The notes under the pieces were generated by a model. The model made no database searches. It saw only the letters and a list, made by a program, of their open reading frames with translations, and was not told the DNA's origin. Position numbers and translations under genes: made by a program. From Dehalococcoidia bacterium (GTDB lineage: Bacteria > Chloroflexota > Dehalococcoidia > UBA2979), in contig OZ253555.1 of NCBI GenBank assembly GCA_965262725.1, forward strand, positions 288,001 through 352,000: a DNA stretch of 64,000 bases, given 5' to 3'. Of this stretch, positions 2,787 through 55,832 are shown one piece after another (position 1 is the first letter of the stretch; each line of letters begins with the position of its first letter).

Positions 2787-3471
2787 CCAAGAGCGCGATC
2801 GGCCTCAACATCGCCTTCATGTCCGTGGAAGCCGGCGGACTGAGCGCCGAGACACGCACCTGCATCGCGTCCGTCGCCATGGAGCACCCCGCCGCCTTCG
2901 GGATCGGCCCACCGCCCACGGCCGATGACTTTGCAGGCCTGTTCGGCGCAGGCATACAGATGAACCTCTGCCTGACCGACGAGGAGGCCGCCGCTCTCGC
3001 AGGTGCGGGCGGCGACGGACTCCCGCCGCCCTCGGTCATACGGTGCATGGAGGAGCAGATCGGCAGCCTGGACGACCTCCTCGCCGCCTTCTTGGCTCTG
3101 ATGGGCGAGGAACCGGATCCCAGCGCGGCGCTCGGCCTGTTCGCGGCAGCTCAGGAATGTAGGGTCAGGGGCTGGCGCGGTGCGAGCCGTAGGCGGTGGC
3201 GCATCAGTTCCAAGCCGGTTTCCCGGTGGTGCCCAACTCCACGGCCATAGCAGCGTCCGTCTCCAGCCCCTGCCACATCGAACCGGACGTGAGGTTCTCC
3301 CTCATCCGGCTCACCGATGCCCTTCACCAGATGGCATGCAGCGCTCCCCACAACGTGGGTCGTGCCTTGGCCAGCCGGTACAGCATGTGCGGAGAGCCTC
3401 GAACTGGGAATGATGCTTACATCTGGCCCCACTTTGATCCTCTGATCTGGCCCCACCCCCGGGGACCGGGA

Positions 3472-4254
3472 TCAGGTCGTTGGGGCACCTCCTCTCGGGG
3501 AGGTCGAGGCCCGGAGCCGGTAGGACTCGGTGCCGGTCTCGATGATATGGGCACGGTAGGTGAGGCGGTCAACGACGGCCGCGGCGAGACGAGGGTCGGT
3601 GAAGATGCGGCCCCACTCGGAGAACGGGGAGTTGGAGGCGACGGCGACCGATGCCCGTTCCTCGCGCTCGGTCAGGATCTGGAACAGCATTTCGGCACCG
3701 CGCGGGTCGAGGTGGACGTACCCGAACTCATCCAGGCAGAGCAGGTCGAGGCGGCCGTAGCGGGCGACGAGGCGTGAGAGCGCGCGATCATCCGACGCTT
3801 CGGCCAGTTCATTCACCAGGGCGGCCGTGGTCATGTACCGCACGCGCAGCCCCAGGTGGCAGGCGGCCATGCCGAGGCCGATGAGCAGGTGTGACTTCCC
3901 GGTGCCGCTGTCACCGAGCAGGACGACGGGCTCGCCCCTTTCGACCCAGTCGCAGCGCTCCAGCGTGGCGAGCGCCGGCGCGTCGACTGTCGGCGCCGCC
4001 TCGAGGTCGAAGTCGGCGAGGTACTTGAAACGCGGGAACCGCGCCTCGACGATACGGCGCTGACGGCGCCGCTCCTCACGGTCATCGCGTTCGGCTCCCA
4101 GCACTTCGGCGAGATAGCCCAGATGGGTGATCCGGTCTCGGACCGCGGCTTCGGCGAGCGGGAGCGCCTGCTTCCTGACGGTGGGGAGACGGAGCTCGCG
4201 GCAGATCGCCTCGATTGTCAGCTCCGCGGCCTGGTCGGTGAGGGGTGCTGTCAT
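3472..4254 (-). CDS. istB: IS21 helper ATPase IstB
   Basis: Walker A GDSGTGKS, LLCLDEFGY, ASN.PFSEW, VDRL; likely start MTAPLTDQ after GGAGG. Confidence 0.93.
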   Translation of the reverse strand: MTAPLTDQAAELTIEAICRELRLPTVRKQALPLAEAAVRDRITHLGYLAEVLGAERDDREERRRQRRIVEARFPRFKYLADFDLEAAPTVDAPALATLERCDWVERGEPVVLLGDSGTGKSHLLIGLGMAACHLGLRVRYMTTAALVNELAEASDDRALSRLVARYGRLDLLCLDEFGYVHLDPRGAEMLFQILTEREERASVAVASNSPFSEWGRIFTDPRLAAAVVDRLTYRAHIIETGTESYRLRASTSPRGGAPTT

Positions 4255-4270
4255 CGGGTGCCTCCTGTGG

Positions 4271-5905
4271 TCAGCGTGCCGTCGACACCGCAGCGGTGAC
4301 GGCGGTTGTGGTGGTGTGCGACGCGTTCTCGGCAGACCGCGGAGCGCGGGAGCGCCCGCCCGGCGACGTGCCGGGCCATCGGGAATCACCCGAGAGCAGC
4401 GCATCGTAGCCATCGAGGAGCGGGGCAGGTCGGTCGTAGCGCTCCAGGTGCGGTCTCTCGACGGCGGCGTCTGGTGGCCTGCGGTCGGCGAGACGGCGCG
4501 CCTCGATGGCGACCAGTTCGGGGTTCACCGACTGGATCCTGTTGACCGTCCCGAGCGCGGCGTGCACCGCCGTGAAGGGAAGATGGCGATGCAGGAGCAG
4601 GACCTCGATGTACGCCTGCGTGCCCGCGCGGTCGCCGAGCTTGCGGCGGGCGCGGTCCCAGAAGCGCTGATGCTCGGCTGTGACGTGTCCCTTCGCACGC
4701 GCCTGCTGGAGCGCCACCGAGCCCGGGACCGCCCCGGGCTTGCGCGCGAGCACCTCCAGATAGTGGTCGAGCAGCAGGACCTCTGCTCCGGTGCGGGCGC
4801 TGCGCTCGTGGTGGGCGACTTCACGCCCCTCGGCCCACACGGTCAGGCTGTTCCCGGACAGCCGCACGTCCAGCTTCCGGCCTGCATAGGCCGCCGGGAC
4901 CGAGTAGCGGGAGCTACGCACGGCGATGCGCGCCTTGCGGTCGACCTTCGCGCGCAGCGGGATTGACGGGTCGAAGCGCTCCGCCGGAAGCGGACGCAGC
5001 GAGGCCTTCTCGTTCTCTCCCATCTCGCCGACGGTGGCGAGGCGGCTCTCGATGTGCCGGGCGTCGTCGGTGCGGTCCGCCTCCCGCACTCGTTCGTTCA
5101 GCTCGCCGAGGGTCGCCACCTTCGGGACCGGCACGAAGTGCCGCCGGCGGAAGCGGCCGACCTCGCCCTCCACACCGCCCTTCTCGTGCGCGCCCTCGAT
5201 GCCGGGCTCACAGAAGAAGCTGTCGAAGCCGTAATGCGAGCGGAGCGCGATGAAGCGCTCGGTCTGCAGGCGCTCGCGTCCCTGCAGCACGGTGGTGACG
5301 GCCGCCGTCAGATTGTCGTAGCGGATGCGCCGCGGCACTCCGCCGAGCCGCTCGAAGGCGACCACGTGCCCCTCGAGCAGAGACTCCTGGCCCTCGCCGA
5401 CGAAGCAGACGTGCGCCGCCCGCCCCGAATGCGAGAGCCGCATCACGAACATCGCCAGCCGGGTCTCGACGCCCTCCAGCCACACCGTCACCGTGCCGAA
5501 GTCGACCTCCGCCTCCTCGCCGGGAGGATGGACCTGCGGGATCGTCACAACCGCGCGCCCGCCCTGGATCTCGCGACGCAGGCGCGCGACGCAGGCGCGG
5601 ACCGTGGGCTCGGCCACCGTCGCCCCGTGTTCGTCGACGAGGCGCTCCCAGATGCGCCGGGCCGTGTGCCGCTGCTTGCGCGGCGCGCTGAGGTCGTCCA
5701 CGAGCCAGCCCCGGATGACCGAGACGTACGGCCCGAGCTTCGGGGCCACGCGGGTCGCCTGCTTGCGTTCCGGGGGTATCGCCGACCCAAGAGCCTGCCG
5801 CACCGTGCGCCGGTGCACGCCATGCCGGCGTCCCAGCTCATGGATCGACAGCTCCTCCTCCCTCGCCATCCGTCGGATAGACTCGAACAGCTCCACTCTC
5901 GACAC
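4271..5905 (-). CDS. istA: IS21 transposase IstA
   Basis: N-terminal HTH, EAEVDFG, GGVPRRIRYDN, HEKGGVEG. Confidence 0.93.
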   Translation of the reverse strand: MSRVELFESIRRMAREEELSIHELGRRHGVHRRTVRQALGSAIPPERKQATRVAPKLGPYVSVIRGWLVDDLSAPRKQRHTARRIWERLVDEHGATVAEPTVRACVARLRREIQGGRAVVTIPQVHPPGEEAEVDFGTVTVWLEGVETRLAMFVMRLSHSGRAAHVCFVGEGQESLLEGHVVAFERLGGVPRRIRYDNLTAAVTTVLQGRERLQTERFIALRSHYGFDSFFCEPGIEGAHEKGGVEGEVGRFRRRHFVPVPKVATLGELNERVREADRTDDARHIESRLATVGEMGENEKASLRPLPAERFDPSIPLRAKVDRKARIAVRSSRYSVPAAYAGRKLDVRLSGNSLTVWAEGREVAHHERSARTGAEVLLLDHYLEVLARKPGAVPGSVALQQARAKGHVTAEHQRFWDRARRKLGDRAGTQAYIEVLLLHRHLPFTAVHAALGTVNRIQSVNPELVAIEARRLADRRPPDAAVERPHLERYDRPAPLLDGYDALLSGDSRWPGTSPGGRSRAPRSAENASHTTTTAVTAAVSTAR

Positions 5906-6990
5906 ACTCCTCTTCCCTCGCTCCGGGAGTCATGCAGTCACCCGAGCGTAGGTCCTGGATGGGTCGGGGGTGGGGCCAATTCAAAGGATCAAAACGGCTC
6001 CAGGTGGGGCCAATTCAGAGCATCATTCCCACCGAACCCTACCAAGTGGTTGCTAGCCCCGAGGGGCACTCACCAGTCCACACCCCCAGCAACATGCACG
6101 GACAAAGTAGGGGTCCTTCCCATCACCGGCGGTTATGTTGTCCGTCCGGCTCCAGCGGTACTACGACCCCCTCCGCCACCCTTCCGGCTGGCTGTCCACT
6201 TCCCGGCTCTGACCGGTTATAGGACGCCTCGCTCCGACGCCCTCTCACAGGGTGCCGGGCCGGGGAGGGCTTCTCCGGTTCCCGTCGCTACCTTCCGTAC
6301 GTTCCACGTCCCATACGCCGGGAGGTTTCTTGAGGCTGCATTCCAGGATCTTCACCTCGTCCATGGCCTTCGCCCTGACCACCCGGGCTCGGCTCCTCCT
6401 TGGTCCTGTCAATAGACAGGCGAGTCTCACGGCGCGGCAGACTTCGCGTCATGCTGCGGACCGCACGTTTGCTCCCCCTCATAGGGCTCTTGACGTCGGG
6501 CTTCGACGCAGACCGTTTCCCGTCCACGCCGCCGACCTGCTAACGGGCCTCCTGACAGTTACCCGTGCCGGACTCTCACCGGCTGGCAGCAACGAGCATG
6601 TCTCCGGACCGGTCACGTCATCACGTCACCACCCCTTCGACTTCCGGACGCACGCGGGGCCGACCTCGAAGGAGCCCCAGGTCTGCCTAGTGTCCCGAGT
6701 TGCAAATGCTGAAAACAATCGCACCGAGCCTCGCAGGCTTGGTCCGCTCAGTGGAGGCTTGGGTCGCAACTGGAACGAGCACCGGATGCGCTTCATCTCG
6801 CACAAGACCACCGACCAGATCCTTGAGTAGGGTCAGGGGCTGGCGCGGTGCGAGCCGTAGGCGGTGGCGCATATTGCCAGGCCGGTTTCCCGGTGGCGCC
6901 CATCTCCACAGCCGTAGCATCGTCCGTCTCCAGCCCCTGCCGCCTCGAACCGGACGTGAGGTTTTCCCTCATCCGGCTCACCGATGCCCT

Positions 6991-9190
6991 TCACCGGGCG
7001 GCATGCGGGGTGCCCCGCCACGGTCGATATGGCCGTGGTGCCACGACGCGCTGTCCAGCTAGCGAGATGAGCCCCAGACGGTCGGCGACGGGAAACGGGT
7101 GCCCGCGATGGCGTCGCCGCCAACGCAACCGCTTCCCCAGCCAGAGTTTGAGTCTCCACATGGCAAACCAGTGCAGGACGTCGAACGCCCTCGCCGAGTT
7201 GCCGTAGCGGAAGTAGCTCATCCAGCCGCGGAGGTAGCGATTGACTTCCTCCACGACCTGCCGGGGACTCAGCAGCAGACGCAACCGCGCCGTGATTTCA
7301 CGGATGCGGTCCCGCGCCCGCTGCATCGCTCGCCGTGAGGGCCAGCGTGCGAGGAACTGGATATTCTTGTTGCGCTTCGCACGTACCCAGCGATGCTCGA
7401 AGCCGAGGAACTCCAGCCCCTCGCCTCCCTCCCGCAGGTGCACGATGCGCGTCTTCTCCGCCTTGAGCTCCAGTCCGAGCTCACCCAGCAGGTCACGCAG
7501 CAGGGCCAACGCCCGCTCCGCTTCCTCCCGGCTCCGGCAGAGCACCACGAGGTCATCCGCATAGCGCACCAGCACGCCATCACCCTTCGCCTCCCAGTCC
7601 CGGTCCAACCGGTGCAGGTAGACATTGGCCAGCAGCGGGGACATCACCCCGCCCTGCGGCGTACCCGTCGCGCTGTGCTGCACGACCCCCGACTCCATCA
7701 CACCGGCACGCAGCATCGCCCGTACCAGCTTCAGGAGATTGCGGTCGCATATCCGTTCCTCGACGGCCGTCATCAGACGGTCGTGTAGGGTCAGGGGCTG
7801 GCGCGGTGCGAGCCGTAGGCGGTGGCGCATCAGTTCCAAGCCGGTTTCCCGGTGGTGCCCAACTCCACGGCCATAGCAGCGTCCGTCTCCAGCCCCTGCC
7901 ACATCGAACCGGACGTGAGGTTCTCCCTCATCCGGCTCACCGATGCCCTTCACCAGATGGCATGCAGCGCTCCCCACAACGTGGGTCGTGCCTTGGCCAG
8001 CCGGTACAGCATGTGCGGAGAGCCTCGAACCCTACCAAGTGGTTGCTAGCCCCGAGGGGCACTCACCAGTCCACACCCCCAGCAACATGCACGGACAAAG
8101 TAGGGGTCCTTCCCATCACCGGCGGTTATGTTGTCCGTCCGGCTCCAGCGGTACTACGACCCCCTCCGCCACCCTTCCGGCTGGCTGTCCACTTCCCGGC
8201 TCTGACCGGTTATAGGACGCCTCGCTCCGACGCCCTCTCACAGGGTGCCGGGCCGGGGAGGGCTTCTCCGGTTCCCGTCGCTACCTTCCGTACGTTCCAC
8301 GTCCCATACGCCGGGAGGTTTCTTGAGGCTGCATTCCAGGATCTTCACCTCGTCCATGGCCTTCGCCCTGACCACCCGGGCTCGGCTCCTCCTTGGTCCT
8401 GTCAATAGACAGGCGAGTCTCACGGCGCGGCAGACTTCGCGTCATGCTGCGGACCGCACGTTTGCTCCCCCTCATAGGGCTCTTGACGTCGGGCTTCGAC
8501 GCAGACCGTTTCCCGTCCACGCCGCCGACCTGCTAACGGGCCTCCTGACAGTTACCCGTGCCGGACTCTCACCGGCTGGCAGCAACGAGCATGTCTCCGG
8601 ACCGGTCACGTCATCACGTCACCACCCCTTCGACTTCCGGACGCACGCGGTATCGACTCGAAACACGAGGCGATGTCCGTCTCCACTACCCACCGCCTGC
8701 CCCGCCACGCCTCGTCAATGAGGACCTGCAGGGCGTCATGGGCCGAACGCTTCGGGCGGAAGCCGAAGCTGCATGGCAGGAAGTCGGCCTCGAAGACCGG
8801 CTCCGTCACGAGCTTCAGCGACGCCTGCACGATGCGGTCGCGGACCGAAGGAATCGAGAGCGGGCGCTCTTCCGACCGACCGGGCTTGGGTATCCAGACC
8901 CGGCGGCTCGGCTGCACCCGGTATCTTCCCTCCTTCAGTTCCGTGGCCAGTTCATCCAGCAGGCGCTCCACGCCGTAGCGCTCGACCTCGGCGAGCGTGA
9001 CGCCGTCGATACCGGCTGCGCCGCGATTGCGACGCACCTGCTCCCACGCGCGCTCCAGAATGTCTCTGCGATAAACCTTGTCGTAGAGCGCATGAAAGCG
9101 TCTATTGGGGTCGGCCTTGGCCGCCCGGTAAAGCGTGCGTTGTAGTGTTCGGACCTTGTCTTGGATGGAGTTAGCCGCTTGGGCACTCAC
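6991..9190 (-). CDS. ltrA: Group II intron RT/maturase without endonuclease domain, split by an ORF-less intron (join 9190-8647, 7784-6991; 445 aa)
   Basis: RRFHALYDKV, RPLSIP.VRDRIVQ, SFGFRP.RSAHDA, DIASCFESIP|HDRL, GTPQGGVMSPLLANVYL, YADD, domain X GWMSYFR. Confidence 0.9.
7785..8646 (-). mobile_element. ORF-less group II intron, copy 2 (862 nt), sense inside the RT ORF of intron A
   Basis: GTGCG...CCCTAC ends; flanks rejoin as ATA CCG C|AC GAC (IPHD). Confidence 0.92.
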
Positions 9191-9804
9191 CGATTCATCC
9201 CTACTCCCCACGCGTGAGCAAAGCAGGGGTCCTTCCCATCACCGGCGGTTGTGTTGTCCGTCCGGCTCAAGCGGTACTACGACCCCCTCCGTCACCCTTC
9301 CGGCTAGCTGCCCACTTCCCGGCTTTGACCGGTTATAGGGCACCTCGCTCCGACACCATCTCGCAGGGTGCCGGGCCGGGGAGGGCTTCTCCCGTTCCCG
9401 TCGCTACCTTCCAAACGTTCCACGCCCCTTACGCCGGGAGGTTCCTTGAGGCTGCAGCGCAACGCGCATTCAGGATCTTCACCTCGTCCATGGCCTTCGC
9501 CCTGAATTGCCGGGCTCGGCTCCTCCACTATCCGTTAACGACGCGGCAGGCTTCGCTTGATGCTGCGGACCGCTTGGTTGCTCCCCCTGATAGGGCTCTT
9601 GACGTCGGGCTTCGACGTGGACCGTTTCCCGTCCGCGCCGCCGACCTGCTAACGGGCCTCCTGACAGTTACCCGTGCCGGACTCGCACCGGCTGGCAACG
9701 ACGAGCATGTCTCCAGACCGGTTACGTCATCACGTCACCCGCCCTTCGACTTCGGGACACACCAACCTCACCGGATATCTCAATCGCATTTCCAATTCAG
9801 GACA

Positions 9805-11718
9805 CTAGGACGCTGGTGCCAAACTCGAGTCACGGCGGCCGCAGTCGGTGTGAGAGGGAAGTGTAGCGTCGGGTGGGCGCGGGTCGGGAGTTGCGCCGCT
9901 GGGGAGTGAGCGGGGCCGGCATCGACCCGGGGACCCCCGGACGCAGGCTCTCCCGCAGTCGCCCCCGCCTCCGTCTCCCCTACGAGGGCGCTGTGACCGC
10001 CCACCGGGTTGGTGTGTGATGCAGGCCCAGGACCGCCAACCGCGCCAGGTTGACGGAGGCGGCGAGCAGATTGTGGTCGGCGTCGACCTTGAGACGGCCC
10101 CGGACACGGGCGACGCGGCCCCCGTGTCTGCGACGGGTCGTATGCGCCACCTTGCGTTCGACTCGCGAGCGGACCGCGCGGTAGCCGGATAGCCACCCGG
10201 GAGTCTCCTGGCGTGCCCGGGCGGCCGCGAGACTGGCCTCGTGGACGCCCACCGCGACGGTGCGTCCCCCGCGCGATGTGGTGCACTGCGCGCGAAGCGG
10301 ACAGGGGCTGCAGGCGCCCCGGAAGCAGGCGGTTCCCGAGCCGTCGGAGGCGCGGCGAATCGGCACCGTCACCTCCGCGGGGCAGGTCACGGTGCCCCTC
10401 TCCAGGTCGATGGTGAATCGCTCCTTGCTGAAGTGCTGATGCGGCGCGGTCGCTCTCTGAGTGCGGCAGCGGGACTCGACCCCGTGCTGCTCCAGCACCT
10501 CCTGGAACGCGCCCGAGCCGTAGGCCGAATCGCCGTAGACCGTCGGTGTCCCGGTGCTCGCCTCCGCAGCCGCGTCGGCGGCTAAGTCGTGTGCCCCTGC
10601 GTCCTCCAGCAGGTCCGTGATCAACTCCTCCGCAACCTCCCCGTCCGCCACGTTGCCCGCGGTCACCGTCGTGTGGGTGATGAGCTCCGACTCCGGGTCG
10701 ACCGCCAGATGGCCCTTGTAGCCGTCGAAGCCGTGCGCGGAGCTCTTGCGTCCGTGGCGGGCGTCGGTGTCCACGGTCGAGATGATGCGGTCCCTCGCTA
10801 CCCGCCGCGCAATCACGAAGCGCCCGCCGTCGTCCTGCTCGAGGTCCTGCCCCACCACGGCCGCACAGAGCTCGCCCGCCCGCTCGACGTGCCCGTCGAG
10901 CTCCCGGCCCTCCAGCACCCGCAGGCAGCGCGATACATCGGCCGCCAGCTCGTCGATGAGCGCCCGCGCGGCCTCGCGGTCCTCCCAGTCGCACGGAGGC
11001 TTCCCAGCGGCCCGGTAGTCGTCATCGCGCTCCAGCACCGCCCGCAGCTCGGCCCCGAGTCCGGGCGCATCGAGGCTCTCCGCCTCCCGCAGCAGCCCGC
11101 GGAGCGACGAGCGGAGCAACGTCACCGTGTCCTGCGTGGCGACGGCGTCGTAGAGCGGCGTGGAGTCCAGCACACGCTGAGCAGAGAGCAGCTTCGCCTC
11201 GCGCGCCACCGCGAGCGTGGCCTCGAAGATGCGCCGGGGACGCTCGGAGCCGGCGAGGCGAGCGCGCATCGAGACCAGGACCGTGTGCACGAAGCCCGGC
11301 GCGTCGTAGTCGAGTCCGCCGCAGGCGAACTTCCAGCGGGCGTCCCACTCGAAGGCCGCCACCGCCTCGCGGTCGGAGAGGCCGTGGAGTCGCTGCAGCA
11401 CCATGACCGTGGCGACGACGCGGGACGGAACGCTGCGGCGGCCGCGAGCGGCGAAGAGGTCGGCGAACATCTCGTCGGGGAAGAGGCGTTCACCCTCGCG
11501 GGCCAGGAGGGTCCAGATCGAGTTCCCGGGAACCCTCTCAGCGACGTAGGCGGTGCTCTTGAAGAGGTGGGGCTGCCTGGAGGTCTCTCCGAGTGTCATG
11601 GGCGCGCCTTCCGCTGCGAACGGAACTGATCACCCACATGATCGCATCCCGTGACTCAGCTCGCAACGCGACCCCGCCTCCAGCGGCACCCACCGTCCAA
11701 AAAACACCAGCCTCCTAG
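9805..11718 (-). mobile_element. IS1182-family element
   Basis: Inverted ends CTAGGACGCTGGTG / CACCAGCCTCCTAG bounded by CTAG. Confidence 0.8.
9980..11599 (-). CDS. IS1182-family DDE transposase
   Basis: GRRSVP...LQRLHGLSDREA (DUF772-like), LDSTP, DTDARHGRKS...GYKGH, GDSAYG, Cys cluster CP..C..CPLRAQCT, RSRVE. Confidence 0.85.
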   Translation of the reverse strand: MTLGETSRQPHLFKSTAYVAERVPGNSIWTLLAREGERLFPDEMFADLFAARGRRSVPSRVVATVMVLQRLHGLSDREAVAAFEWDARWKFACGGLDYDAPGFVHTVLVSMRARLAGSERPRRIFEATLAVAREAKLLSAQRVLDSTPLYDAVATQDTVTLLRSSLRGLLREAESLDAPGLGAELRAVLERDDDYRAAGKPPCDWEDREAARALIDELAADVSRCLRVLEGRELDGHVERAGELCAAVVGQDLEQDDGGRFVIARRVARDRIISTVDTDARHGRKSSAHGFDGYKGHLAVDPESELITHTTVTAGNVADGEVAEELITDLLEDAGAHDLAADAAAEASTGTPTVYGDSAYGSGAFQEVLEQHGVESRCRTQRATAPHQHFSKERFTIDLERGTVTCPAEVTVPIRRASDGSGTACFRGACSPCPLRAQCTTSRGGRTVAVGVHEASLAAARARQETPGWLSGYRAVRSRVERKVAHTTRRRHGGRVARVRGRLKVDADHNLLAASVNLARLAVLGLHHTPTRWAVTAPS

Positions 11719-11934
11719 GGCCCGCTCACATTGGCTGCCGGGCATCGTGGACCCGACGGTAGCCCGGTCGCGCGCCGGTTGGCGGGTCTCACCTCCCTCA
11801 TGGGCACTTTCCATCAGCAAGGCTGGCTGGCCCCGCCGGGCTCCCAGGTGGAGGAGCCGGGCGAGAGCGCGAGGCGACAAGGGGGACCGCAGGCGATCGG
11901 GCGCTTCGTGAAGTGTGGCCCGCGGCGCGGCGCG

Positions 11935-12249: not shown

Positions 12250-12314
12250 CCTGCGCCTCCGTCCCCGCTCCTTCAGATTACCTCCCGCTGCTCTCCCCAG
12301 ACAGCGCCGGCGGA

Positions 12315-14624: not shown

Positions 14625-14627
14625 GAA

Positions 14628-23050: not shown

Positions 23051-23224
23051 GGTGGCGGCTCCGGATGGGCTCGGGGTGGAGATGGGATGCCCGGTGCGCG
23101 CTCGCCCCACGCGGAGCGACGGCCCGGGCTAGAGCATCATCCTTCCGGCGTGCCGCCGTGCGGCGGCGCCCCGGCGCCGACTCGGTGCCTCCGTGGGGAT
23201 GGTGCTCTGCATCAACGTGCCTCT

Positions 23225-23345
23225 GCTCATCGCTCCCGGCGCTCGTGCGCGGCCACCGGGTCGGCTGGGGCACCGCATCCCCCCTCGGTCGGGGGAGGGT
23301 TGCCGTGGCTTCGTCGGGCCGATTCCCTCTGCCACTCGTGATGAA
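23225..23345 (-). ncRNA. SAM-I family riboswitch
   Basis: Minus strand TTCATC.CGAGTGGCAGAGGGA..CGGCCCGACGAAGCC.CGGCAACC...GGTGCC...GATGAG matches the SAM-I core. Confidence 0.85.
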
Positions 23346-23386
23346 CGACCCCGGCGTGCATACGCGTCCCGGGGCGCCCATCGAGG

Positions 23387-30729: not shown

Positions 30730-30778
30730 CCTGGCTCCGTGATCGTCCGACGATACGCTCTCGATGAGGTGCTCCCTA

Positions 30779-46262: not shown

Positions 46263-46750
46263 TCTTGTGGCCTGCCCCAAAGAGCAATGGCGGCTGTCCA
46301 CCGACTCCGCCAACTTGTGCTATATTCGCACATGGGCTCCCTAACTCCCTCGCAGTCCCAAGAGGTTCGTTTCGTGCCAATCGCACCCCTTCCGGACTGG
46401 CAGTCCGTCGGAGCGCGCGTCGCCCTCGCGCGACGCACTCTCGGACTCACCCAAGCCGAGCTCGCCGCACGCGTCGAACTCGGCCGATCAGTGCTCGCGA
46501 AGGTGGAGAGGGGCGCTCGCCAGCTAAGCTCGAATCCACCGAACGAAGCTTGACGAGGCGGGGTGCCGGGCTGCCGGAGAGTTCGACGGGTGTGTCGGCG
46601 TTCGCCGGGCGGCGCCGGGGGCGGGCCGGAGCCAGGAGCCGTCGCTCAGCACCGCTCGGGGGCGCTGAGGGTGCGGGCGCGAGGGTGCGCGAGGCGTGGG
46701 CGGGCATGCTGGCGCGAGCTTCGGCTCCGGTTCGGCGCTGTGAGCGGGCG

Positions 46751-48076: not shown

Positions 48077-48249
48077 CGAATGGGTGCTCCCTGTGGCTGT
48101 GACGTGATTCGGTCAAAAACCATTGTCCCAGCTACAGCGGAGCACCCAACCCCAGCCGCTCGCGCACTCTTCTTCGGTTCGCGGTAGGGATGCCGGTTGC
48201 CCGGCACCCCCCGCACAGATCCGGACGTGCCCTCTCGGGCATCCGGCTC

Positions 48250-49578
48250 CTACCTCAAGTGCGTGACGGCAAATCGCTCCGCAGGCCACGGGTGAAGGAT
48301 GGAGATTCGGGGCCAGTGTTTCTGGCACAGGGCAAGGATGCGCTCCCACGTGAAACGGTCGCGCTGCGACCGCCGTCGGAGAACGCGCAGCCAGAGCCGC
48401 TTCACGAAACGAACAAACTGCGTGAGCGCCGGCGAGCTGGTCGGCACCGCGTAGTAGCCAAGCCACCCACGCAGTACCCGCCCCAGCCACTGCCCCGTCG
48501 TCACGGGGTTGTCGTGCATGCGCCGCCACAACTCGGCCTTGATGGCCTTCAGCGTCCGGCGCATCCGCTTCGCAACGGGCTTGCGCCCCAGCCCGAATCT
48601 CCCGTCGCGTCGGGTCCGGCAGTAGTGCGTCATGCCGAGAAAGTCGAACGTCTCCGGTCGGCCCTCCCCGCGCTTCCGCCTGTTCGCCAGCGCGAACCTG
48701 CCGAACTCAAGTAGACGGGTCTTCTCCGGGTGCAGCTCCAGCCCGTAGGCCGCGAACCGCTCCCGGAGTGCCTTCATGAACCGCACCGCATCGCTGCGGT
48801 GCTGGAACCCCAGGACGAAGTCATCGGCATACCGCACGATGTACGCCTCGCCCCGGACCTCCCGCGGTCGCCACTCGCGCGCAAACCAGTCGTCGAGCAC
48901 GTTGTGCAGGTACACGTTCGCAAGCAGCGGCGATATCGGCGCCCCCTGCGGCATCCCCCGCACGAAATCGACTTCCGGCTCCGCGTCCATGACGCCGACG
49001 CTCAGCCACTTTCGTATCAGGCGCAACACCCGCTGGTCCCCGATGCGCATCTCCAGAAACGACATCAGCCGCCCCCGGTCGATGCTGCCGAAGAACTCCC
49101 GGATGTCCACCTCGACAATCCAGCTGACCTTGCGCCGTTCGACCGCGTAGGCCAGTGCGTCCAGCGCGTCATGCGCCGAACGCCCCGGCCTGAAGCCATG
49201 CGAGAAGCCGTAGTAGCCCGACTCGTAAATCGGGTTCAAAAGATTGTCCACCACCGCCCGCTGAACGATCTTGTCCTCCAGCGAGACGATACCGAGCGGC
49301 CGTATTCCCCCGTCCGGCTTGGGTATCTCTACCCGCCTGACGGGCTTCGCCCGGTACGCTCCACGGTGTACGCGGCCATGCAGGTCGAGCAATCGCTCGT
49401 CCAGCCCGTCCCCGTATTCTCGCCACCTCACCCCGTCCACGCCCGGAGCCGCATCCCGCTTCAACGCGAGATACGCCTCCCGCAGCGCCTCCGGCGTGAT
49501 GTGGTGCAAGAGCGCGGTGAGTTTCTCTCCCGGCTTCCGTTCCACGAACTGCCGTATCCTCTCCGCTCCGGGTGACAC
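48250..49578 (-). CDS. ltrA: Group II intron RT/maturase (class E-like, no endonuclease)
   Basis: LTALLHHIT, AAPGVDG, RPLGI..LEDKIVQ, PQGAPISPLLANVYL, YADD, FDFLGMTHYC, GWLGYYAVP. Confidence 0.92.
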   Translation of the reverse strand: MSPGAERIRQFVERKPGEKLTALLHHITPEALREAYLALKRDAAPGVDGVRWREYGDGLDERLLDLHGRVHRGAYRAKPVRRVEIPKPDGGIRPLGIVSLEDKIVQRAVVDNLLNPIYESGYYGFSHGFRPGRSAHDALDALAYAVERRKVSWIVEVDIREFFGSIDRGRLMSFLEMRIGDQRVLRLIRKWLSVGVMDAEPEVDFVRGMPQGAPISPLLANVYLHNVLDDWFAREWRPREVRGEAYIVRYADDFVLGFQHRSDAVRFMKALRERFAAYGLELHPEKTRLLEFGRFALANRRKRGEGRPETFDFLGMTHYCRTRRDGRFGLGRKPVAKRMRRTLKAIKAELWRRMHDNPVTTGQWLGRVLRGWLGYYAVPTSSPALTQFVRFVKRLWLRVLRRRSQRDRFTWERILALCQKHWPRISILHPWPAERFAVTHLR

Positions 49579-49779
49579 CGCACCCCGACTCTGCGTCCGG
49601 ACCGTGCCGGTGCTTTGAGGATTCCTCTCGGTTGGGGCCCTTTGCTCCAGCGACTCCGCCGGGGCTCGCGCCCCCTTCTATGAGGGTCGTCTGATCCGCA
49701 AGGCCGACGTGGCGGCCTTCTGCGCCGTTCTACCGATCGCGCCTCCCGTCCGCAGCCCTGTGGTGGTTGTCGGTGCCGA

Positions 49780-50010
49780 TGCGAGTGGTGCCGCCGTCTT
49801 GTCCCCGGGACGTTGTGGTGACCGTGCTTCTATTCGCACTCGTCGAGGGGCCGCTCCGGGCCCGGTGCATGATGATCAGCCTGTCTCCAGGGTGTGGGCG
49901 CTGCCATCTTGTTCCCGTCCTCGTTGGGACCAGGGGGTTCCGCAGTCGCCCGCGTGTCGGCATCTCTCGTATCCTCCGAAGCCCACCGGCCGCCCGGTCG
50001 CCTCGCTCCT
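49780..50010 (-). ncRNA. Putative bridge/seekRNA of the IS110 element (ends approximate)
   Basis: Contains segments matching the target halves (AGGGGG 49932, CTTGTTC 49908) and donor-junction halves (GATGA 49871, CTTCTAT 49827). Confidence 0.7.
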
Positions 50011-50023
50011 CGCGTGCTGTCTG

Positions 50024-51115
50024 CTACGCCGCCTCGGCCGCGCGCGCGTGGCGCAACGGCTCGTAGACCTCCCCGCTCTTCCAGAGCGCAAGCATCAGCA
50101 CCGCCAGTCGCCTCGCGACCGCGACGACGGCACGCTTCTTCGCATTGCCGGCCCCCGACTCCGCGTAACGCAGCCCCCACCTGCGGAGGTCGCTGTCGGG
50201 GCCGAAGGGGCCCAGGATGTAGTGCGCGGCCTGGTTCAGCACCCGGCGCAGCGCCACGTCCCCTTCCTTCGTGATCCGCAGCTGGGGCTGCCGATCACCG
50301 GAATCGCGGCTCCGGGGCACCAGCCCCAGGTAGGGCCCCACCTCCCTGTTCTTGGGGAAGCGGGCCGGGTCCTCGATGGTGAGGATGAAGGTGAGCGAGG
50401 TGATCGGGCCGACGCCCACGATCTGCCGCAGCGCGCCGGTCTCCGCGTAGCGCTCGCACATCGCGGCGAGCTTCTTGTCGGCCTGGCGGATCTCCCCGGT
50501 CAGCTGCTCGATCTGGTGGAGCACCGGCAGCAGCGCCGGGCCCAGCTCCTCGGGGATGTGCTCTCTGACCGCGCGGTGGAAGGCCGGCGCCGTGCAGCCC
50601 GGAAGCGCCGCGCCCCACGCCTTCACCGCGCCCCGGACGTGGTTGATGAACATCGTGCGCGCCCGGACCAGCGCCTCGCGGCTGCGGAGCACCTGGAGGT
50701 CCGCCTGCGCCATGGCGCTTCGGTGCCGGATGGGGAAGAGGAGCGCCGGGTCGAATCGGCCGAGCCGTGCGAGGTGCTCGGCATCGGAGCGGTCGGTCTT
50801 GCGCTGGCTGCGCGCGATCAGCCTGACCTGCCTCGGGTTGGCGACGATCACGTCGTGACCGAGCTCCGCGAACATCCGGCTCAGCCACGGGGACCGCGGC
50901 CCCACCTCCATCACCACCCGCGCGCCCTGCAGTGGGGTGAGCGCCCGCGTGAGCGCCGCGGTCGTGGTGCGGACTCGCTCCTCCCGCACGATCTCCCCGT
51001 CGCCACCGAGGACGCAGAGGTGACTGTAGCGGTCGCTGACGTCGATGCCGACAGTCACGAGCTCCGCATCCCCCACCTTCCTGCTCTCTGTGACATCTGA
51101 TGTACGCTGTGCCAC
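50024..51115 (-). CDS. IS110 DEDD recombinase/transposase
   Basis: GIDVS, VMEVG, KTDRSDA, GVGPITS, YLGLVP...DSG...ITK.G, AVARRL; start inferred at GTG 51115. Confidence 0.92.
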   Translation of the reverse strand: MAQRTSDVTESRKVGDAELVTVGIDVSDRYSHLCVLGGDGEIVREERVRTTTAALTRALTPLQGARVVMEVGPRSPWLSRMFAELGHDVIVANPRQVRLIARSQRKTDRSDAEHLARLGRFDPALLFPIRHRSAMAQADLQVLRSREALVRARTMFINHVRGAVKAWGAALPGCTAPAFHRAVREHIPEELGPALLPVLHQIEQLTGEIRQADKKLAAMCERYAETGALRQIVGVGPITSLTFILTIEDPARFPKNREVGPYLGLVPRSRDSGDRQPQLRITKEGDVALRRVLNQAAHYILGPFGPDSDLRRWGLRYAESGAGNAKKRAVVAVARRLAVLMLALWKSGEVYEPLRHARAAEAA

Positions 51116-52623
51116 GGTCGGTCTCCTACCTCTCTCGGCTCGCCTGAGCCGTTCTCCTGGGCCACCACGTGAGCCCGTGCTTGGAGGGGAAGTATCCCCT
51201 CTGAGGAGGGGACCGACCCTCATGTCATCTTGTTCGCCGCCTTCATCGCTCGTACGGCCCCATCAGACTGCTGCGCATCGTGCATCATCGGCTACGGTTT
51301 ACGTCCCTTCCCGACGCGGTCCCGGCGTACGACTCGTCGGGACAACGCGCAGCTCTCCCAAGTCCCGGCGATAGACGTGTGTGCGTGCATGGGGTCTTCG
51401 ACACCGTGGGGCCCGACCACGACTCGCCAGTAGCGCCGTCGCCGGTATTGCCTTCGACCAATCCAAGAGCCTCGGCACCCCAAATGGCCCTTTCGATGCT
51501 CATTAGCCCCGCCCGCACACCCCGCTGCCGACGCTTCACAAGCCGCCTCGCGACGACCCGCGCACGGCTCGCGGAATGACATGAGTGGCTAGCTCTTTGC
51601 CATAGAGGACTTCCACCTCCTGCCTACTCGCCAGTTAGCCTGGCGCTCTGGATCAGGGCTAAGCGCCCTTGAACTCATGGCGCTCGCCAGGGAGACAGGC
51701 CTACCTATCGACTGGTTCGTCGCAGAATCGTCTCCGACCGTTACCAGCCACCGTGCGGGCAGTCTCAGCGCGTCAACGATCGTCAACGTGCGTGTCGATG
51801 TCCTCGTGCGGGACGTGACCCAGCTCATCGAGATGCATCTGCTTCGCACGGACGCGAAGCGGCCCGACCTGCGCGTTCCCCGCGATGTCGCGGGCGCCGA
51901 GGCGGCCGCACGCGCCGTGCGCACCCACCTCGAAGCCGACGCTGAGCACCCCATCGACCTCGCCGCGGCGGCTGAACGACTCGGCGTCTTCGCCTACTCG
52001 CTCGCGTTGCCGCAGAGCGACGTGGATGGCGGCTACGTGGCGCTCGACGACCAGCTCGGCGTCGCCCTGATCAACGGTGACCAGCCGTCGGCACGCCGCC
52101 GCTACACACTCGCTCACGAGATTGGCCATCATGTCTTCCAGGACGAGTATGCCGTTGACGTCGCCGCCACCGGCCGCTCGGAGACCGAGCGCACTATCGA
52201 TGCCTTTGCGATCCATCTGCTGTTGCCGCGCGCCACACTCGCTGACCGGTGGCGCGAGTTGGACGGCGACGATGAGCCCCGGACTGCCGCGCTCATCATC
52301 GGTGCCGAATACCGAGTCAGTTGGACAGCGCTCTGCGCGCAGCTCATCAATCTCGGCGTCGTGGAGCGATTCCGAGGCGAGATCATGCGGGAAACGACAC
52401 CGGTCGGGGGCGAGTACGCGGAGCTCGGCCTCGACATCGTCGAGGAGCTCGATGCGCCCTACGTCCCTCGCGGCGTCGCGCGCGCCGCCATCAGCGGCTA
52501 CCGCAGCCACCGCCTCGGCTTAGGACGAACCCTCGAGCTGCTCCACGGCACACTGGGTGAAGCGGACCTGCCCGACCGCCACGTCGTTCCGCTTGATGCG
52601 CTCGCCGGCGAGCTGCGTAGTCT

Positions 52624-52882
52624 GTGACGGATGTCGCGTTCGTCTTCGACGCCGGCCCGCTCAGCCACTTCGCGCGCGCGGGCCGGCTCGATGCGCTGCA
52701 CTTGATCTGCAGCGAGGCACGCCTCACGGTCACCGAGGCAGTGATCGGCGAGCTCGCCAGAGGCACCGCGACATACCCCTCGCTGCAGGACGTGATCGAG
52801 GCGGATTGACTGCAGCACGTCCGCGTGGACGGCCTCGCTGAGCTGGCAGCGTTCGCCGAGTACGCGCGGGTCCTTGGCTCCT
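52624..52882 (+). pseudogene. PIN-domain (DUF3368-like) toxin with internal TGA, truncated by IS256
   Basis: FVFDAGPLSHFARAG...V..EL; reads on past TGA 52807 as LQHVRVDGLAELAAFAEYARVLGS; GTGA overlap with the ImmA gene. Confidence 0.7.
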
Positions 52883-54970
52883 GAGGTATAGCCAGAAGTT
52901 GTGGATGAGCCAGGAGAGAGAGGCGGCGTACCCTCCCTGAGTCAACAGGAGTGGCCGGGAAGCCGGCCGGGGAGGAGTACGCCGGATGTTGAGGATAGTC
53001 CATGAGGGAGGCGAGCGGGAAGCGGGGCCGGGGACGCAGGTCGGACTGGACGAGCTCTGCCGTATGGCCGCCCAGGAGATGCTCGGGGTGGCGCTGGAGG
53101 CCGAACGGCAGGCCTACCTCGAGCGCCACGCGGGCGCGGTCGATGGAGAGGGCCGCCGCGTGGTCGTCGGCAACGGCTACGCCCGCGCGAGAGAGATCAC
53201 CACCGCCGCGGGACGGGTCGCCGTGCAGGCGCCGCGCGTCGACGACCGCCGTCCCGGCGAGCGCTACATCTCGGCGCTTCTGCCGCCCTACATGCGGCGC
53301 TCGCCCAAGGTGACCGAGGTGTTGCCGCTGCTCTACCTGCGCGGGCTCTCGACGGGCGACTTCCTGCCCGCCCTGTCGGCGTTCTTCGGCTCGGGGGCGG
53401 GGCTCTCCGCCTCGACCGTGGGGCGGCTCACGGAGGCGTGGCAGGCCGACCACGAGCGCTGGCAGCGACGCAGCCTGGCCGAGGTCGACTACGTCTACCT
53501 CTGGGCGGACGGCGTCCACTTCACCGTGCGTCTCGAGGAGGACCGGCTCTGCTGCCTGGTGCTGGTCGGGGTGCGCCCGGACGGCCGCAAGGAGCTGGTG
53601 GCCGTGCAGGACGGCTACCGTGAGGACACCCAGTCCTGGCTCGACCTGCTGCGGGACCTGCGCGAGCGGGGCATGCGCGACCCCGAGCTGGCCGTCGGCG
53701 ACGGGGCGCTCGGGTTCTGGGCGGCGCTGCGGGAGGTCTTCCCCCGGACCCGCGAGCAGCGCTGCTGGGTGCACAAGACCGCGAACGTCCTGGCGTCGCT
53801 GCCCGAGCGCGTCCAGGGGGAAGCGACGCGGGCGCTCCACGCCGTCTCCGGAGCCGCGACGCGCGCCGGGGCGCTGGATGCGGCGCGCGCCTTCGCCGGG
53901 CAGTTCGCGCAGTGGCCGAAGGCGACAGCGAAGGTCGCCGACGACCTCGAACGGCTGCTCGCGTTCCACGACTTCCCGTCCGAGCACCACGTGCACCTGC
54001 GCACCACGAGTAGGGTGAGGAGCTGGCGCGGTACGCGCTGTAGGCCGGTGGCGCTCTTGTTCCGAGCAGGTTTCCCCGCGGTGCCCAATCCCACGGCCAT
54101 GGCATATCGCCCGTTTCCAGCTCCTCCCCGTCAAACCGGACAGGCGGTTCTCCCGCATCCGGCTTACCGACGCCCTTCACCGGACGGCATTCGGTTTCAC
54201 CCGCCACGACCGGTTCGGCCGCGGTGCGACAACCCATCCACTGAGCGAGAGCAGACCGAGGCGGGTCGCATGGCGGTATGACACGCCGTACCGCAGACGT
54301 TGCCGACTGCGCCGACGCTTACCCCACCACACCACCAGCCGCAACGCGGCGTACGCACTGAGCTTGCGGAACGACTTCGCCACGTTCCCGTAACGAAAAT
54401 AGCCCGCCCAGCCGCGCAGGAGGCGGTTCACCTCCTGCACGATGCGCTCCACGCTCAACACCAACCGTGACCGCACCGTCATCTCACGGATGCGGTCACG
54501 TGCATGCTGCATCGCTCGTCGCGAGGGAAAGCGTGCAAGGAATCGGAGATTCGAACCCCGCCTAGCCCGTACCCACCGGTGTTCAAAGCCGAGGAACTCC
54601 AGCCCCTCGCCTCCTTCCGCCAGGTGCACGATGCGGGTCTTCTCCGCCTTCAGCTCCAGTCCGAGCTCGGCGACCAGCTCACGGAGCAGCGCCAGCGCCG
54701 CATCCGCTTCCCGCTGCGTTCCGCAGAGCACCACAAGGTCGTCGGCATATCGCACCAGCACTCCCCGGCCCCTCGTCTCCCATTCCCGGTCAACCCGGTG
54801 CAGATAGACGTTGGCCAGAAGCGGGGATACTACCCCGCCCTGTGGCGTACCCGTCACGCTGTGCCGCACGGCCCCGGACTCCATCACCCCGGCACGGAGC
54901 ATCGCCCGCACCAGCTTCAGGAGCTTCCGGTCATATATCCGCTCCTCCACCGCCTCCATCAACCGGTCGT

Positions 54971-55832
54971 GTAGGGTCAGGGGCTGGCGCGGTGCGAGCC
55001 GTAGGCGGTGGCGCATCAGTTCCAAGCCGGTTTCCCGGTGGTGCCCAACTCCACGGCCATAGCAGCGTCCGTCTCCAGCCCCTGCCACATCGAACCGGAC
55101 GTGAGGTTCTCCCTCATCCGGCTCACCGATGCCCTTCACCAGATGGCATGCAGCGCTCCCCACAACGTGGGTCGTGCCTTGGCCAGCCGGTACAGCATGT
55201 GCGGAGAGCCTCGAACCCTACCAAGTGGTTGCTAGCCCCGAGGGGCACTCACCAGTCCACACCCCCAGCAACATGCACGGACAAAGTAGGGGTCCTTCCC
55301 ATCACCGGCGGTTATGTTGTCCGTCCGGCTCCAGCGGTACTACGACCCCCTCCGCCACCCTTCCGGCTGGCTGTCCACTTCCCGGCTCTGACCGGTTATA
55401 GGACGCCTCGCTCCGACGCCCTCTCACAGGGTGCCGGGCCGGGGAGGGCTTCTCCGGTTCCCGTCGCTACCTTCCGTACGTTCCACGTCCCATACGCCGG
55501 GAGGTTTCTTGAGGCTGCATTCCAGGATCTTCACCTCGTCCATGGCCTTCGCCCTGACCACCCGGGCTCGGCTCCTCCTTGGTCCTGTCAATAGACAGGC
55601 GAGTCTCACGGCGCGGCAGACTTCGCGTCATGCTGCGGACCGCACGTTTGCTCCCCCTCATAGGGCTCTTGACGTCGGGCTTCGACGCAGACCGTTTCCC
55701 GTCCACGCCGCCGACCTGCTAACGGGCCTCCTGACAGTTACCCGTGCCGGACTCTCACCGGCTGGCAGCAACGAGCATGTCTCCGGACCGGTCACGTCAT
55801 CACGTCACCACCCCTTCGACTTCCGGACGCAC
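54971..55832 (-). mobile_element. ORF-less group II intron, copy 4 (862 nt), inside the RT ORF of intron B
   Basis: Same insertion point GAGTCGATACCGC|ACGACC as copy 2. Confidence 0.92.

Follow-up and report, generated by a model that had tools for sequence, protein, structure and literature searches.

A short group II intron, probably mobilised in trans, interrupts the reverse transcriptase genes of its relatives in a Dehalococcoidia-type genome

The DNA analysed here, a window of 64,000 nt from a Dehalococcoidia-type genome, contains several copies of a short group II intron without a reverse transcriptase (RT) gene, and the question is how such an element could have multiplied. Four copies of 862 nt, starting at positions 3159, 7785, 29108, and 54971, had been proposed from the sequence alone. 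All four starts were found again; since the element, designated mini-intron below, lies on the minus strand, as do all Rfam matches to domain I, these left ends are the 3' ends of the intron. Three copies (copy 2, 7785-8646; copy 3, 29108-29969; copy 4, 54971-55832; all minus strand) are contiguous, 862 nt long, and 100% identical, while copy 1 is split by an IS21-family element and extends to position 6653. Its 3' part (intron nt 617-862; 3159-3404, minus strand) agrees with the other copies at every position over 246-247 nt, and its 5' part (intron nt 1-621; 6033-6653, minus strand), with a 5' junction at genome position 294653, is likewise a 100% match. The intervening element of 2,628 bp (3405-6032; Pfam IstB_IS21, 1e-60, and Mu-transpos_C_2) carries istB (3472-4413) and istA (4271-5905), both on the minus strand, and the five nucleotides 617-621 of the intron are duplicated at its two ends. 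Copy 3, used as the reference, is a solo copy that lies close to the 3' end of an ExoX/RNase_T-like gene and reads in the same direction; the 5' exon of this gene (29970-30999, minus strand) encodes an RNase_T exonuclease domain and an ExoX-like C domain according to Pfam. When the intron is removed by coordinates, the frame remains open over 394 codons, and the exons meet at codon 366.

The assignment to group II introns was borne out by several features. In all four copies of the window, the domain I core matched the Rfam model group-II-D1D4-4 in full (model positions 1-138) with 102.8 bits, the gathering score being 49 (copy 3: 29765-29901, minus strand, E 1.2e-23). Domain V (copy 3: 29229-29261, minus strand) was recognized by the Intron_gpII and plastid D5 models and is also present in the minimum free energy (MFE) fold; its structure is canonical, with an AGC triad and a 2-nt bulge. 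Group II introns typically show a bulged A in domain VI 7-8 nt from the 3' splice site and GUGYG and AY termini. The mini-intron begins with GUGCG and ends with AC, and a bulged A, the putative branch point (copy 3: 29114, minus strand), lies 7 nt before the 3' end and is unpaired in the basal helix that domain VI forms in the MFE structure. This residue is conserved in ORF-less relatives of 911 nt, which are 73% identical to the mini-intron and differ from it by compensatory pair changes in domains V and VI, three stem pairs of domain V being changed on both sides. The match of the whole D5-D6 region to RF00029 remained just under the gathering score (37-38 versus 40 bits) because domain VI is long. 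Regarding the structural class, the presence of EBS2 argues against IIC.

The ribozyme closely resembles that of an RT-encoding intron in the same window, intron A, as had been noticed before: identity is 86.7% in D1-D3 and 91.7% in D5-D6. Intron A (6827-9762, minus strand; Rfam D1D4-4 at 9558-9694, Intron_gpII at 6914-6981), whose ends were set by alignment with the mini-intron, measures 2,074 nt when the nested copy 2 is left out of the count; this copy occupies nucleotides 1117-1978 of the outer intron, within the RT reading frame. Cutting out precisely these nucleotides restores a continuous frame of 452 codons, the arrangement expected for a twintron. The first RT exon (codons 1-188 plus 1 nt; 8647-9211, minus strand) matches RVT_1 at profile positions 1-83 and TIGR04416 at 2-137, the second (codons 189-452 plus stop; 6991-7784, minus strand) RVT_1 at 90-204, GIIM, and TIGR04416 at 140-352. 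The Pfam search thus detected RVT_1 and GIIM domains in this protein, RT-A, and no endonuclease domain; the best PDB matches were group II RTs (7uim, 5.8e-27; 6ar1, 1.1e-25; 6me0, 2.5e-22). The restored frame aligns colinearly with RT genes that lack the insertion, in A-like introns of two other genomes, G003 and G008; these genes run through the empty insertion site in continuous frames of 460 and 458 codons. A contig of sequencing run X8 connects position 7784 directly with 8647 and lacks precisely the 862 nt of the insert; it may reflect an empty or a spliced site in intron A, but with only 23 letters on its short side and a run of uncertain type, it was kept out of the evidence.

Copy 4 is located at the same codon position in a second relative, intron B (54010-59585, minus strand; Rfam D1D4-4 at 59383-59519), the 5' end of which was set by alignment of related introns. 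Its identity to the mini-intron is about 80% in D1 and D5-D6. Intron B also harbors an IS21 element (56131-58761) which is 99.96% identical to the sequence at 3401-6032 and inverted relative to it. An ORF at 50024-51223, considered as the RT of a third intron, was rejected, because Pfam identified it as an IS110 transposase inserted in that intron.

What remains of the RT gene in the mini-intron indicates its origin. Alignment and translation against intron A revealed no RT ORF but a remnant in domain IV (copy 3: 29273-29389, minus strand) with a GTG start, a stop at codon 7, a deletion junction near 29304-29310, and the original stop codon at 29273-29275. About 36 codons from the beginning and about 11 from the end of the RT gene are left, mutually in frame. 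The RT stubs described previously are therefore real, whereas the supposed tail peptide is a fusion, its front derived from RT codons ~27-36 and its last ~11 codons from the RT C-terminus. The full-length intron of G003 matches mini-intron nt 1-664 and 666-862, on both sides of the junction. The mini-intron thus probably descends from an A-like, endonuclease-less intron that lost RT codons ~37-441 in frame, while the entire ribozyme and the beginning of domain IV were retained. Although the reading frame is dead, the mini-intron shares a short conserved motif around the former start codon with introns A and B and the 911-nt relatives. Within the same bacterial family, ORF-less derivatives have apparently arisen at least two times, with breakpoints that differ, which suggests an intron lineage prone to such hyperparasites.

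Counted across the genome (3.67 Mb, one contig) by exact 40-nt 5' ends, the mini-intron is present in 28 copies, far above chance expectation; 24 of them are full-length and mutually 100% identical. Thirteen copies reside in 12 copies of intron A, three in three copies of intron B, and 12 at unrelated sites. All 16 copies nested in RT genes are inserted between codons 188 and 189. Every A/B-type RT locus is occupied (15/15): the 12 A-type and three B-type genes are open only after removal of the mini-intron, an uninterrupted gene of this type was not found in the genome, and the exact empty homing site does not occur in it. One head-to-tail tandem of the mini-intron was seen, as well as a three-level nest in which a C-like intron is inserted in a mini-intron within intron B. 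Among the 12 solo copies, five lie in ordinary genes in sense orientation. The mini-intron makes up nearly half of the approximately 59 group II introns of this genome, and the sequence-only reading was correct in stating that it outnumbers any single RT-encoding intron (12 A, three B, and 13 C-type copies). The recent spread also deduced there agrees with the identity of 24 of the 28 copies and with the 12 unrelated sites, which show EBS/IBS complementarity.

Target choice can be traced to two loops. EBS1 (intron nt 272-276; copy 3: 29694-29698, minus strand) pairs with target positions -5 to -1, and EBS2 (intron nt 228-233; 29737-29742, minus strand) is complementary to positions -14 to -9 of the homing target; both fall exactly where the mini-intron departs from intron A. 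In seven related introns, six different EBS1 loop sequences were observed, each matching its own 5' exon over 4-5 bp. Among the related introns compared, co-variation of EBS2 with the 5' exon was resolved in four, being clear in the mini-intron, A, and B, and extending over 5 bp in the intron of G003. Co-variation of EBS with the own 5' exon was also detected in the elements of G098/G099. A GC-rich stretch near nt 475 was considered for EBS1 as well; this placement was dropped because the corresponding sequence of intron A does not fit its own exon, whereas loop and exon vary together at nt 272-276 in seven introns. At the 12 solo sites, all five EBS1 positions pair in eight cases and four of five in the remaining four, while 3.7% of random sites reach 5/5. 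Pairing at 5/5 EBS1 positions together with at least 5/6 EBS2 positions was found at seven of the 12 sites, compared to 0.96% of random sites. The four targets in the window share CYGC|A in intron sense, as previously noted. Approximately 1,460 unoccupied genomic sites also satisfy GU-tolerant EBS1/EBS2 pairing; therefore, targets are not defined by pairing alone.

Of the 28 copies, 25-26 are oriented in accordance with the replichore in which they lie. The orientation switches between genome positions 409,808 and 537,614, a region with the skew minimum (410,248) and dnaA (477,809-479,134), and again between 2,536,486 and 2,562,191, the skew maximum being at 2,522,220. Two of the 28 copies are oriented against this pattern, and one more is located 14 kb past the skew maximum, where the curve is flat. 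The direction of host genes does not explain the bias, since two solo copies lie in antisense orientation within interrupted genes. Priming at replication forks has been linked to the bacterial group II introns RmInt1 and Ll.LtrB.

From these analyses it appears likely, with a probability of roughly 80%, that the mini-intron is an ORF-less deletion derivative of an A-like intron which homes into the RT genes of related introns with help provided in trans. The satellite mobilised by a related RT, as first proposed, is thus supported by the sequence data. The diverged exon-binding loops would direct the mini-intron to the stretch of A and B in which a conserved portion of the RT domain is encoded, producing twintrons, and look-alike sites elsewhere would be hit at lower frequency. 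Since all related RT genes are interrupted, help in trans requires prior splicing of the mini-intron. It would be excised first from the twintron transcript, restoring the 452-codon RT/maturase frame, and the protein may then bind the RNA of the mini-intron in trans to form an RNP. This complex would reverse-splice into single-stranded DNA at replication forks, into the lagging-strand template, and a nascent DNA end would prime cDNA synthesis. Anatomy, number of copies, targets, the empty sites of relatives, and the strand bias were observed directly; splicing, the helper, and the priming route are what we infer in this model, the last from the orientation of insertions alone. As no cognate RT gene is free of the insertion, the first RT molecule would depend on protein-independent splicing or on another maturase; its source is a gap in the model.

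A different helper, either the RT of the unrelated C-type introns or a host factor, is an alternative that is considered improbable. Contiguous RT genes of the C type or similar to it are present at 12 loci, most C copies being intact, whereas none of the A/B RT genes is intact at the DNA level. These C-type proteins share 38-40% identity with RT-A. The start of domain IV, however, is the RT binding site in other introns, and the mini-intron has retained an A/B-type version of it, including the motif around the old start codon. Moreover, a group II RT is usually restricted to its own RNA, and the relaxed driver RTs described in the 2010 study of Thermosynechococcus elongatus were found among close relatives only (PMC2882425).

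It is very unlikely that the mini-intron is immobile, having entered intron A once and spread passively thereafter with the A twintron, or among A copies by DNA recombination or gene conversion. It is present in every one of the 12 A copies, whose RT exons are near-identical (0-1 mismatch in 1,350 nt in 10 of the 12 A copies, two being broken downstream). Movement as a unit is indeed the most parsimonious account of the 13 copies nested in A, which could be passengers instead of separate homing events, and retromobility of composite introns is named among possible routes by Mohr et al. (PMC2882425). Passive spread nevertheless fails for the 12 unrelated sites with precise ends and EBS/IBS-matched 5' exons, for the head-to-tail tandem, and for intron B, in which the downstream flank differs from that in A at 222 of 790 nt (~28%) and the inserts are identical, indicating independent insertion. 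An origin of the copies from misassembly or from segmental duplication can practically be dismissed: polishing could have inflated or produced the 100% identity of the full-length copies, and copies 2 and 4 do share flanking DNA, but these flanks are only about 87% identical with 100% identical inserts and are shared because both lie in paralogous RT genes, which argues against duplication, 12 copies have unique flanks, the same end base is used every time, interrupted copies bear target-site duplications of later insertions, and contigs of run X4, possibly derived from the source sample, end at mini-intron borders and extend into the DNA that flanks copy 3 and the copy at genome position 1,018,206.

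Further sequence collections were also searched. Among the contigs of two RNA-labelled runs, X19 and X20, the latter only guessed to be RNA, no exon-exon joint was detected; one contig of 263 nt (X19) and one of 179 nt (X20) lie inside the mini-intron, and X20 also contains a contig of the host site without intron A. The exact 5' end of the mini-intron had no match in metagenome and genome contigs, scans from which its own genome was possibly excluded. A full-text literature search combining "group II intron" and "Dehalococcoidia" returned one paper, which was unrelated.

Elements of this kind are already known and rare in bacteria; the closest are TeI3/TeI4 of Thermosynechococcus and the nested introns of Methanosarcina. 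Dai and Zimmerly reportedly described in 2003 ORF-less and nested group II introns of Methanosarcina acetivorans that home into the ORFs of related introns. As characterized in later papers, ORF-less introns and RT-encoding relatives coexist there in one genome, as in this case (PMC2882425, PMC4424553); the host is an archaeon and the nests are described as lacking coding flanking exons (PMC4424553), whereas five of the 12 solo mini-introns interrupt genes in sense. ORF-less introns are rare in bacteria according to a review of 2015 (PMC4424553), and their best-studied proliferation concerns one thermophilic cyanobacterium, T. elongatus (Mohr, Ghanem, and Lambowitz 2010, PMC2882425). By that account, TeI3/TeI4 share with the mini-intron the descent from an RT-encoding intron by a single domain IV deletion leaving N- and C-terminal ORF remnants, ORF-less introns outnumbering RT-encoding copies, diverged EBS leading to new target sites, and, in the TeI4 twintrons, a position inside the RT reading frame of a related intron with identical inner copies; insertion of other introns into IS elements is a further listed likeness. 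The differences reported in the same paper are equally clear. The inner intron lies between the first two ATGs, allowing RT synthesis without inner splicing, whereas the mini-intron is inserted within the RT domain; two introns keep continuous ORFs, in contrast to 15 of 15 cognate genes occupied; the introns form six diverged families, while all 24 full-length mini-introns are identical; and trans-mobilisation was demonstrated experimentally, the present case being known from sequence. The host also differs, a thermophilic cyanobacterium there and a Dehalococcoidia-type genome here. A twintron of Trichodesmium erythraeum (Pfreundt and Hess 2015, PMC4649490) is, as described, also bacterial, and its inner intron is removed before the outer one functions, a precedent for the proposed order of events; there, both introns contain ORFs and the inner one resides in domain I, whereas the mini-intron is ORF-less and lies in an RT ORF. 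An RT without endonuclease domain is shared with the fork-priming bacterial introns covered in the review (PMC4424553), and the tracking of replication direction by insertion orientation with those of a strand-bias survey (PMC8919778). The unusual point is the occupation of every cognate putative helper gene.

Since the mini-intron lacks an RT ORF and scores below the gathering threshold in D5-D6, surveys based on RTs or on RF00029 would overlook it, and the outer introns of its twintrons as well. The same limitation is stated by Miura et al. (2022, PMC8919778) for their own pipeline; genomes with comparable ORF-less counts may be contained in their supplementary tables.

With the satellite in the catalytic RT domain of every helper gene, control of helper expression is possible, though on balance doubtful. 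If it exists, the A/B RT/maturase would be made only from transcripts already freed of the satellite. Should splicing of the satellite require the maturase, a self-sustaining on/off loop would result, in which RT, when present, feeds its own production and, once lost, leaves satellite and helpers locked in a silent state. Alternatively, the satellite may splice without protein in cells and act as gatekeeper of helper expression. The genome would provide a second natural system of bacterial ORF-less intron proliferation, in some respects cleaner than the cyanobacterial one, with a defined homing site in the RT domain of the helpers, ectopic insertions into ordinary genes, and an orientation that clearly depends on the replichore. 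It bears on the origin of non-autonomous introns and of a shared splicing protein, a proposed step towards spliceosomal introns.

The four 862-nt copies of the ORF-less group II intron (mini-intron) starting at 3159, 7785, 29108 and 54971 (copies 1 to 4) had been described in the sequence-only reading as sharing ends and length. Alignment with 100-nt flanks revealed that this holds for the copies at 7785, 29108 and 54971, which are identical over 862 nt, and not for the one at 3159, which matches for about 246 nt and then diverges. Self-comparison of the window located copy 1 in two parts, 3159-3404 and 6033-6653. The insert splitting it (2,628 bp) shares 99.96% identity with 56131-58761, which is inverted relative to it, and its Pfam matches are IstB_IS21 (1e-60) and a Mu-type transposase domain. 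Nucleotides 617-621 of the intron are found at both ends of the insert, as would be expected of a target-site duplication.

All Rfam group II matches in the window are on the minus strand, and the mini-intron therefore reads from right to left. A full-length match to group-II-D1D4-4 (102.8 bits versus a gathering score of 49) and a canonical domain V are present in each copy. The folded 3' third contains a long domain VI with a bulged A in its basal helix, 7 nt before the intron's 3' terminus, and the termini are GUGCG at the 5' end and AC at the 3' end. The proposed closeness of the ribozyme to that of the RT-encoding intron A (6827-9762) was borne out, with 86.7% identity in nt 1-551 and 91.7% in the 3'-terminal 181 nt. 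Of the RT frame, the start is kept, including its GTG context, with codon 7 now a stop; codons about 27-36 are still recognizable, and from there the sequence jumps in frame to the last ~11 RT codons and the original stop. Stubs of an RT ORF are thus present as suggested from the sequence; the peptide regarded as their tail proved, upon alignment to intron A, to be a fusion of N-terminal and C-terminal remnants. The junction is bracketed by a 2,073-nt full-length relative in G003, a genome of the same genus, which matches nt 1-664 and 666-862.

The whole genome (G000), a single contig of 3,674,403 bp with 70.6% G+C in which the window spans G000:C1:288001-352000, contains 28 exact 40-nt 5' ends of the mini-intron. 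Among these, 24 belong to full-length elements at 100% identity, three to elements broken by later insertions, and one to a shortened element ending at nt 857 with one mismatch. Searches with RF00029 (E <= 0.001) yielded 59 D5-D6 matches: 27 to mini-introns, 12 to intron A, 13 to intron C (a third group II family), three to intron B (the second RT-encoding relative, 54010-59585 in the window) and four to others. The mini-intron is therefore more numerous than any single RT-encoding intron, as had been stated for the window. The Rfam gathering score is reached by only 12 of the 59 matches, all from intron A. With dozens of IstB-like matches in addition to these 59 in 3.67 Mb, the mobile-element load of the genome is very high.

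Thirteen mini-introns reside within the 12 copies of intron A, one of which holds a head-to-tail pair, and three within the three copies of intron B. In every A and B copy the insertion follows the same base, between RT codons 188 and 189 inside RVT_1. The N-terminal half of the RT covers positions 1-83 of the Pfam RVT_1 profile and 2-137 of TIGR04416, the C-terminal half 90-204 and 140-352, and joining the exons by coordinates gives an open RT/maturase frame of 452 codons, in whose product no endonuclease domain was detected with Pfam. When the joined product was used in tblastn searches of the genome, 15 A/B-type RT loci were found, all 15 split at 188/189. Contiguous RT genes are represented by only 12 loci, 38-40% identical to the joined product and mainly of the unrelated C family, and the exact empty homing site does not occur in the genome. 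The empty state is seen in A-like introns of G003 and of G008 (same family), whose RTs, 86-87% identical to that of intron A, are encoded by continuous frames of 460 and 458 codons, respectively, across a nearly identical site. The frame of the second RT exon extends backwards without a stop for 64 codons, into the 3' end of the mini-intron nested there and as far as a GTG, resulting in 328-codon ORFs on the minus strand in both A (6991-7977) and B (54177-55163).

In the tandem (G000:C1:549500-551223), located in one intron A RT gene, the second mini-intron follows the first with no base in between. A second homing into the occupied site would explain this arrangement, because all recognized bases lie in the 5' exon. 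A three-level nest was detected at G000:C1:733701-736485, where a 1,923-nt C-like intron is located in the domain V loop of a mini-intron, itself in intron B. A-like introns of G008 (near G008:C1:842637-844752 and 2488113-2490226) are split at the same position, nt 722/723, and another intron thus seems to use domain V of this family as a homing site.

The largest differences between the mini-intron and intron A are confined to two loops, nt 228-233 and nt 272-276. Loop 272-276 has six different sequences among seven related introns, each pairing over 4-5 bp with the last bases of its own 5' exon. For loop 228-233, the matching stretch is located some 9-14 nt upstream in the mini-intron and in introns A and B, with 5 bp matched in the G003 intron. 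By these matches, the loops at nt 272-276 and nt 228-233 are EBS1 and EBS2, respectively. As a control, 200,000 random sites were compared with the 12 sites of mini-introns outside introns A and B (solo copies), scoring EBS2 within a 10-position range. EBS1 pairs at 5/5 positions in eight of 12 solo sites (random, 3.7%) and at 4/5 in the remaining four (16%), EBS2 pairs at at least 5/6 in 11 of 12 (26%), and 5/5 for EBS1 combined with at least 5/6 for EBS2 is found in seven of 12 (0.96%). About 1,460 unoccupied sites in the genome show GU-tolerant EBS pairing, indicating that pairing alone is insufficient for targeting.

Reading frames at the solo sites were selected by third-position G+C and Pfam matches. 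Five of the 12 solo copies are in sense orientation inside ORFs, specifying an ExoX/RNase_T-like exonuclease (copy 3), the RT of a C-type intron, a giant cadherin-domain protein, an ABC-2 permease and a DUF429 protein. A sixth, also sense, is placed where a NAD kinase gene begins. Two others, antisense, must disrupt the genes that contain them, one of the phosphotriesterase family and one for a histidine kinase. One adjoins an IS630-type transposase gene, copy 1 lies in a pile of mobile elements adjoining intron A, and no ORF was called for two.

Several other elements were noticed in the window. Throughout the genome, intron A is located inside a repeated segment of about 190 nt (flanks 6656-6826 and 9763-9950), which also exists uninterrupted, e.g. 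at 996014-996205 and 2581929-2582118 of the genome, and often adjoins a 1.95-kb DDE transposase element (ORF 9980-11599). An intron C copy on the minus strand (48175-51660; Rfam D1D4-6, 170 bits at 51392-51613; RT ORF 48250-49578) is interrupted, as are two other copies, by a 1,551-bp IS110-family element (transposase ORF 50024-51223), which most of the roughly 13 genomic C copies lack. A 1.65-kb IS with a DDE_Tnp_1_4 transposase is present in two mutually inverted copies of 99.5% identity (1138-2787 and 46528-48178) and a third of 82% (27277-28683), and one of these copies directly borders intron C on the intron's 3' side. A SAM riboswitch (RF00162, 58.7 bits) is found at 23224-23347 on the minus strand, upstream of minus-strand ORFs.

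Between 2,562,191 and 409,808, across position 1, mini-introns occupy the minus strand, and between 537,614 and 2,536,486 the plus strand, with two exceptions, at 1,452,845 and 3,120,020, both in intron A interrupted by the mini-intron (A twintrons). The cumulative GC skew is lowest at 410,248 and highest at 2,522,220, and dnaA is located at 477,809-479,134. The intron sense strand is the G-rich strand in 25-26 of the 28 copies (11-12 of the 12 solo ones among them), the range reflecting one copy of uncertain class 14 kb past the skew maximum, where the curve is flat. Lagging-strand synthesis is templated by the G-rich parental strand, and the specific lagging-strand model stems from work on RmInt1 and Ll.LtrB. 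The two antisense insertions in genes rule out the direction of host transcription as the cause of the bias. RTs without an endonuclease domain are described as priming from DNA ends at replication forks in a review (PMC4424553) and a strand-bias survey (PMC8919778), and the bias fits such fork-primed insertion.

The RT exons of intron A copies show zero to one mismatch in 1,350 nt in 10 of 12 cases, the remaining two being broken downstream, so that the mini-introns nested in A could have been carried along passively with the twintron. Three lines of sequence evidence show that copies moved independently: the tandem pair, the 12 mini-introns at unrelated sites, and the identical inserts in A and B within flanks that differ (e.g. 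at 222 of 790 nt on the downstream side). The last of these also contradicts a duplication of shared flanks. Contigs of sequencing run X4, possibly the source sample, reproduced the junctions of two copies, copy 3 and the one at 1,018,206.

In a set of 41 genomes made up of G000 and its relatives, G000 alone has the 862-nt form, and nine of 99 family genomes searched, again including G000, contain any match to the mini-intron. Two genomes of another genus of the family harbor 911-nt ORF-less elements (G098:C1:1972909-1973819 and 1859038-1859948; G099:C4:2491231-2492141), which match nt 1-862 at 73% identity and have their own EBS1-matched targets, loops and exons obeying the same rule. Their D5 and D6 differ from those of the mini-intron by compensatory changes, with the bulged A conserved. 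They keep about 56 nt more of the RT N-terminus, implying a different deletion breakpoint; the ORF was therefore lost at least twice in this lineage. Part of the twintron stretch is present in 20 of the 24 public runs listed, and at least half of its sampled words in 18 of the 20; these runs come from nine studies.

The mini-intron is best read as a putative satellite intron mobilized in trans. It would home into RT genes of related introns and occasionally retrotranspose to look-alike sites at replication forks. Since all cognate RT genes are interrupted in the catalytic domain, RT would be made only after the mini-intron has been spliced out; this might happen by self-splicing, with the help of another maturase, or through existing RT that sustains its own production. 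The closest match is the T. elongatus system (PMC2882425), where ORF-less introns with a single ORF deletion and remnants at both ends outnumber RT-encoding copies. It likewise has EBS sequences that have diverged, twintrons whose inner introns are identical, and introns inserted into IS elements. In contrast, the inner intron there is placed ahead of the second ATG, the frame stays uninterrupted in two RT genes, and experiments demonstrated mobility. Homing into related intron sequences and deep nests are described for Methanosarcina (PMC2882425, PMC4424553), and sequential twintron splicing for Trichodesmium (PMC4649490). ORF-less satellite introns mobilized in trans are thus already known as a kind, and the present case stands out in that every helper gene is occupied and the burst is recent and unusually clean.
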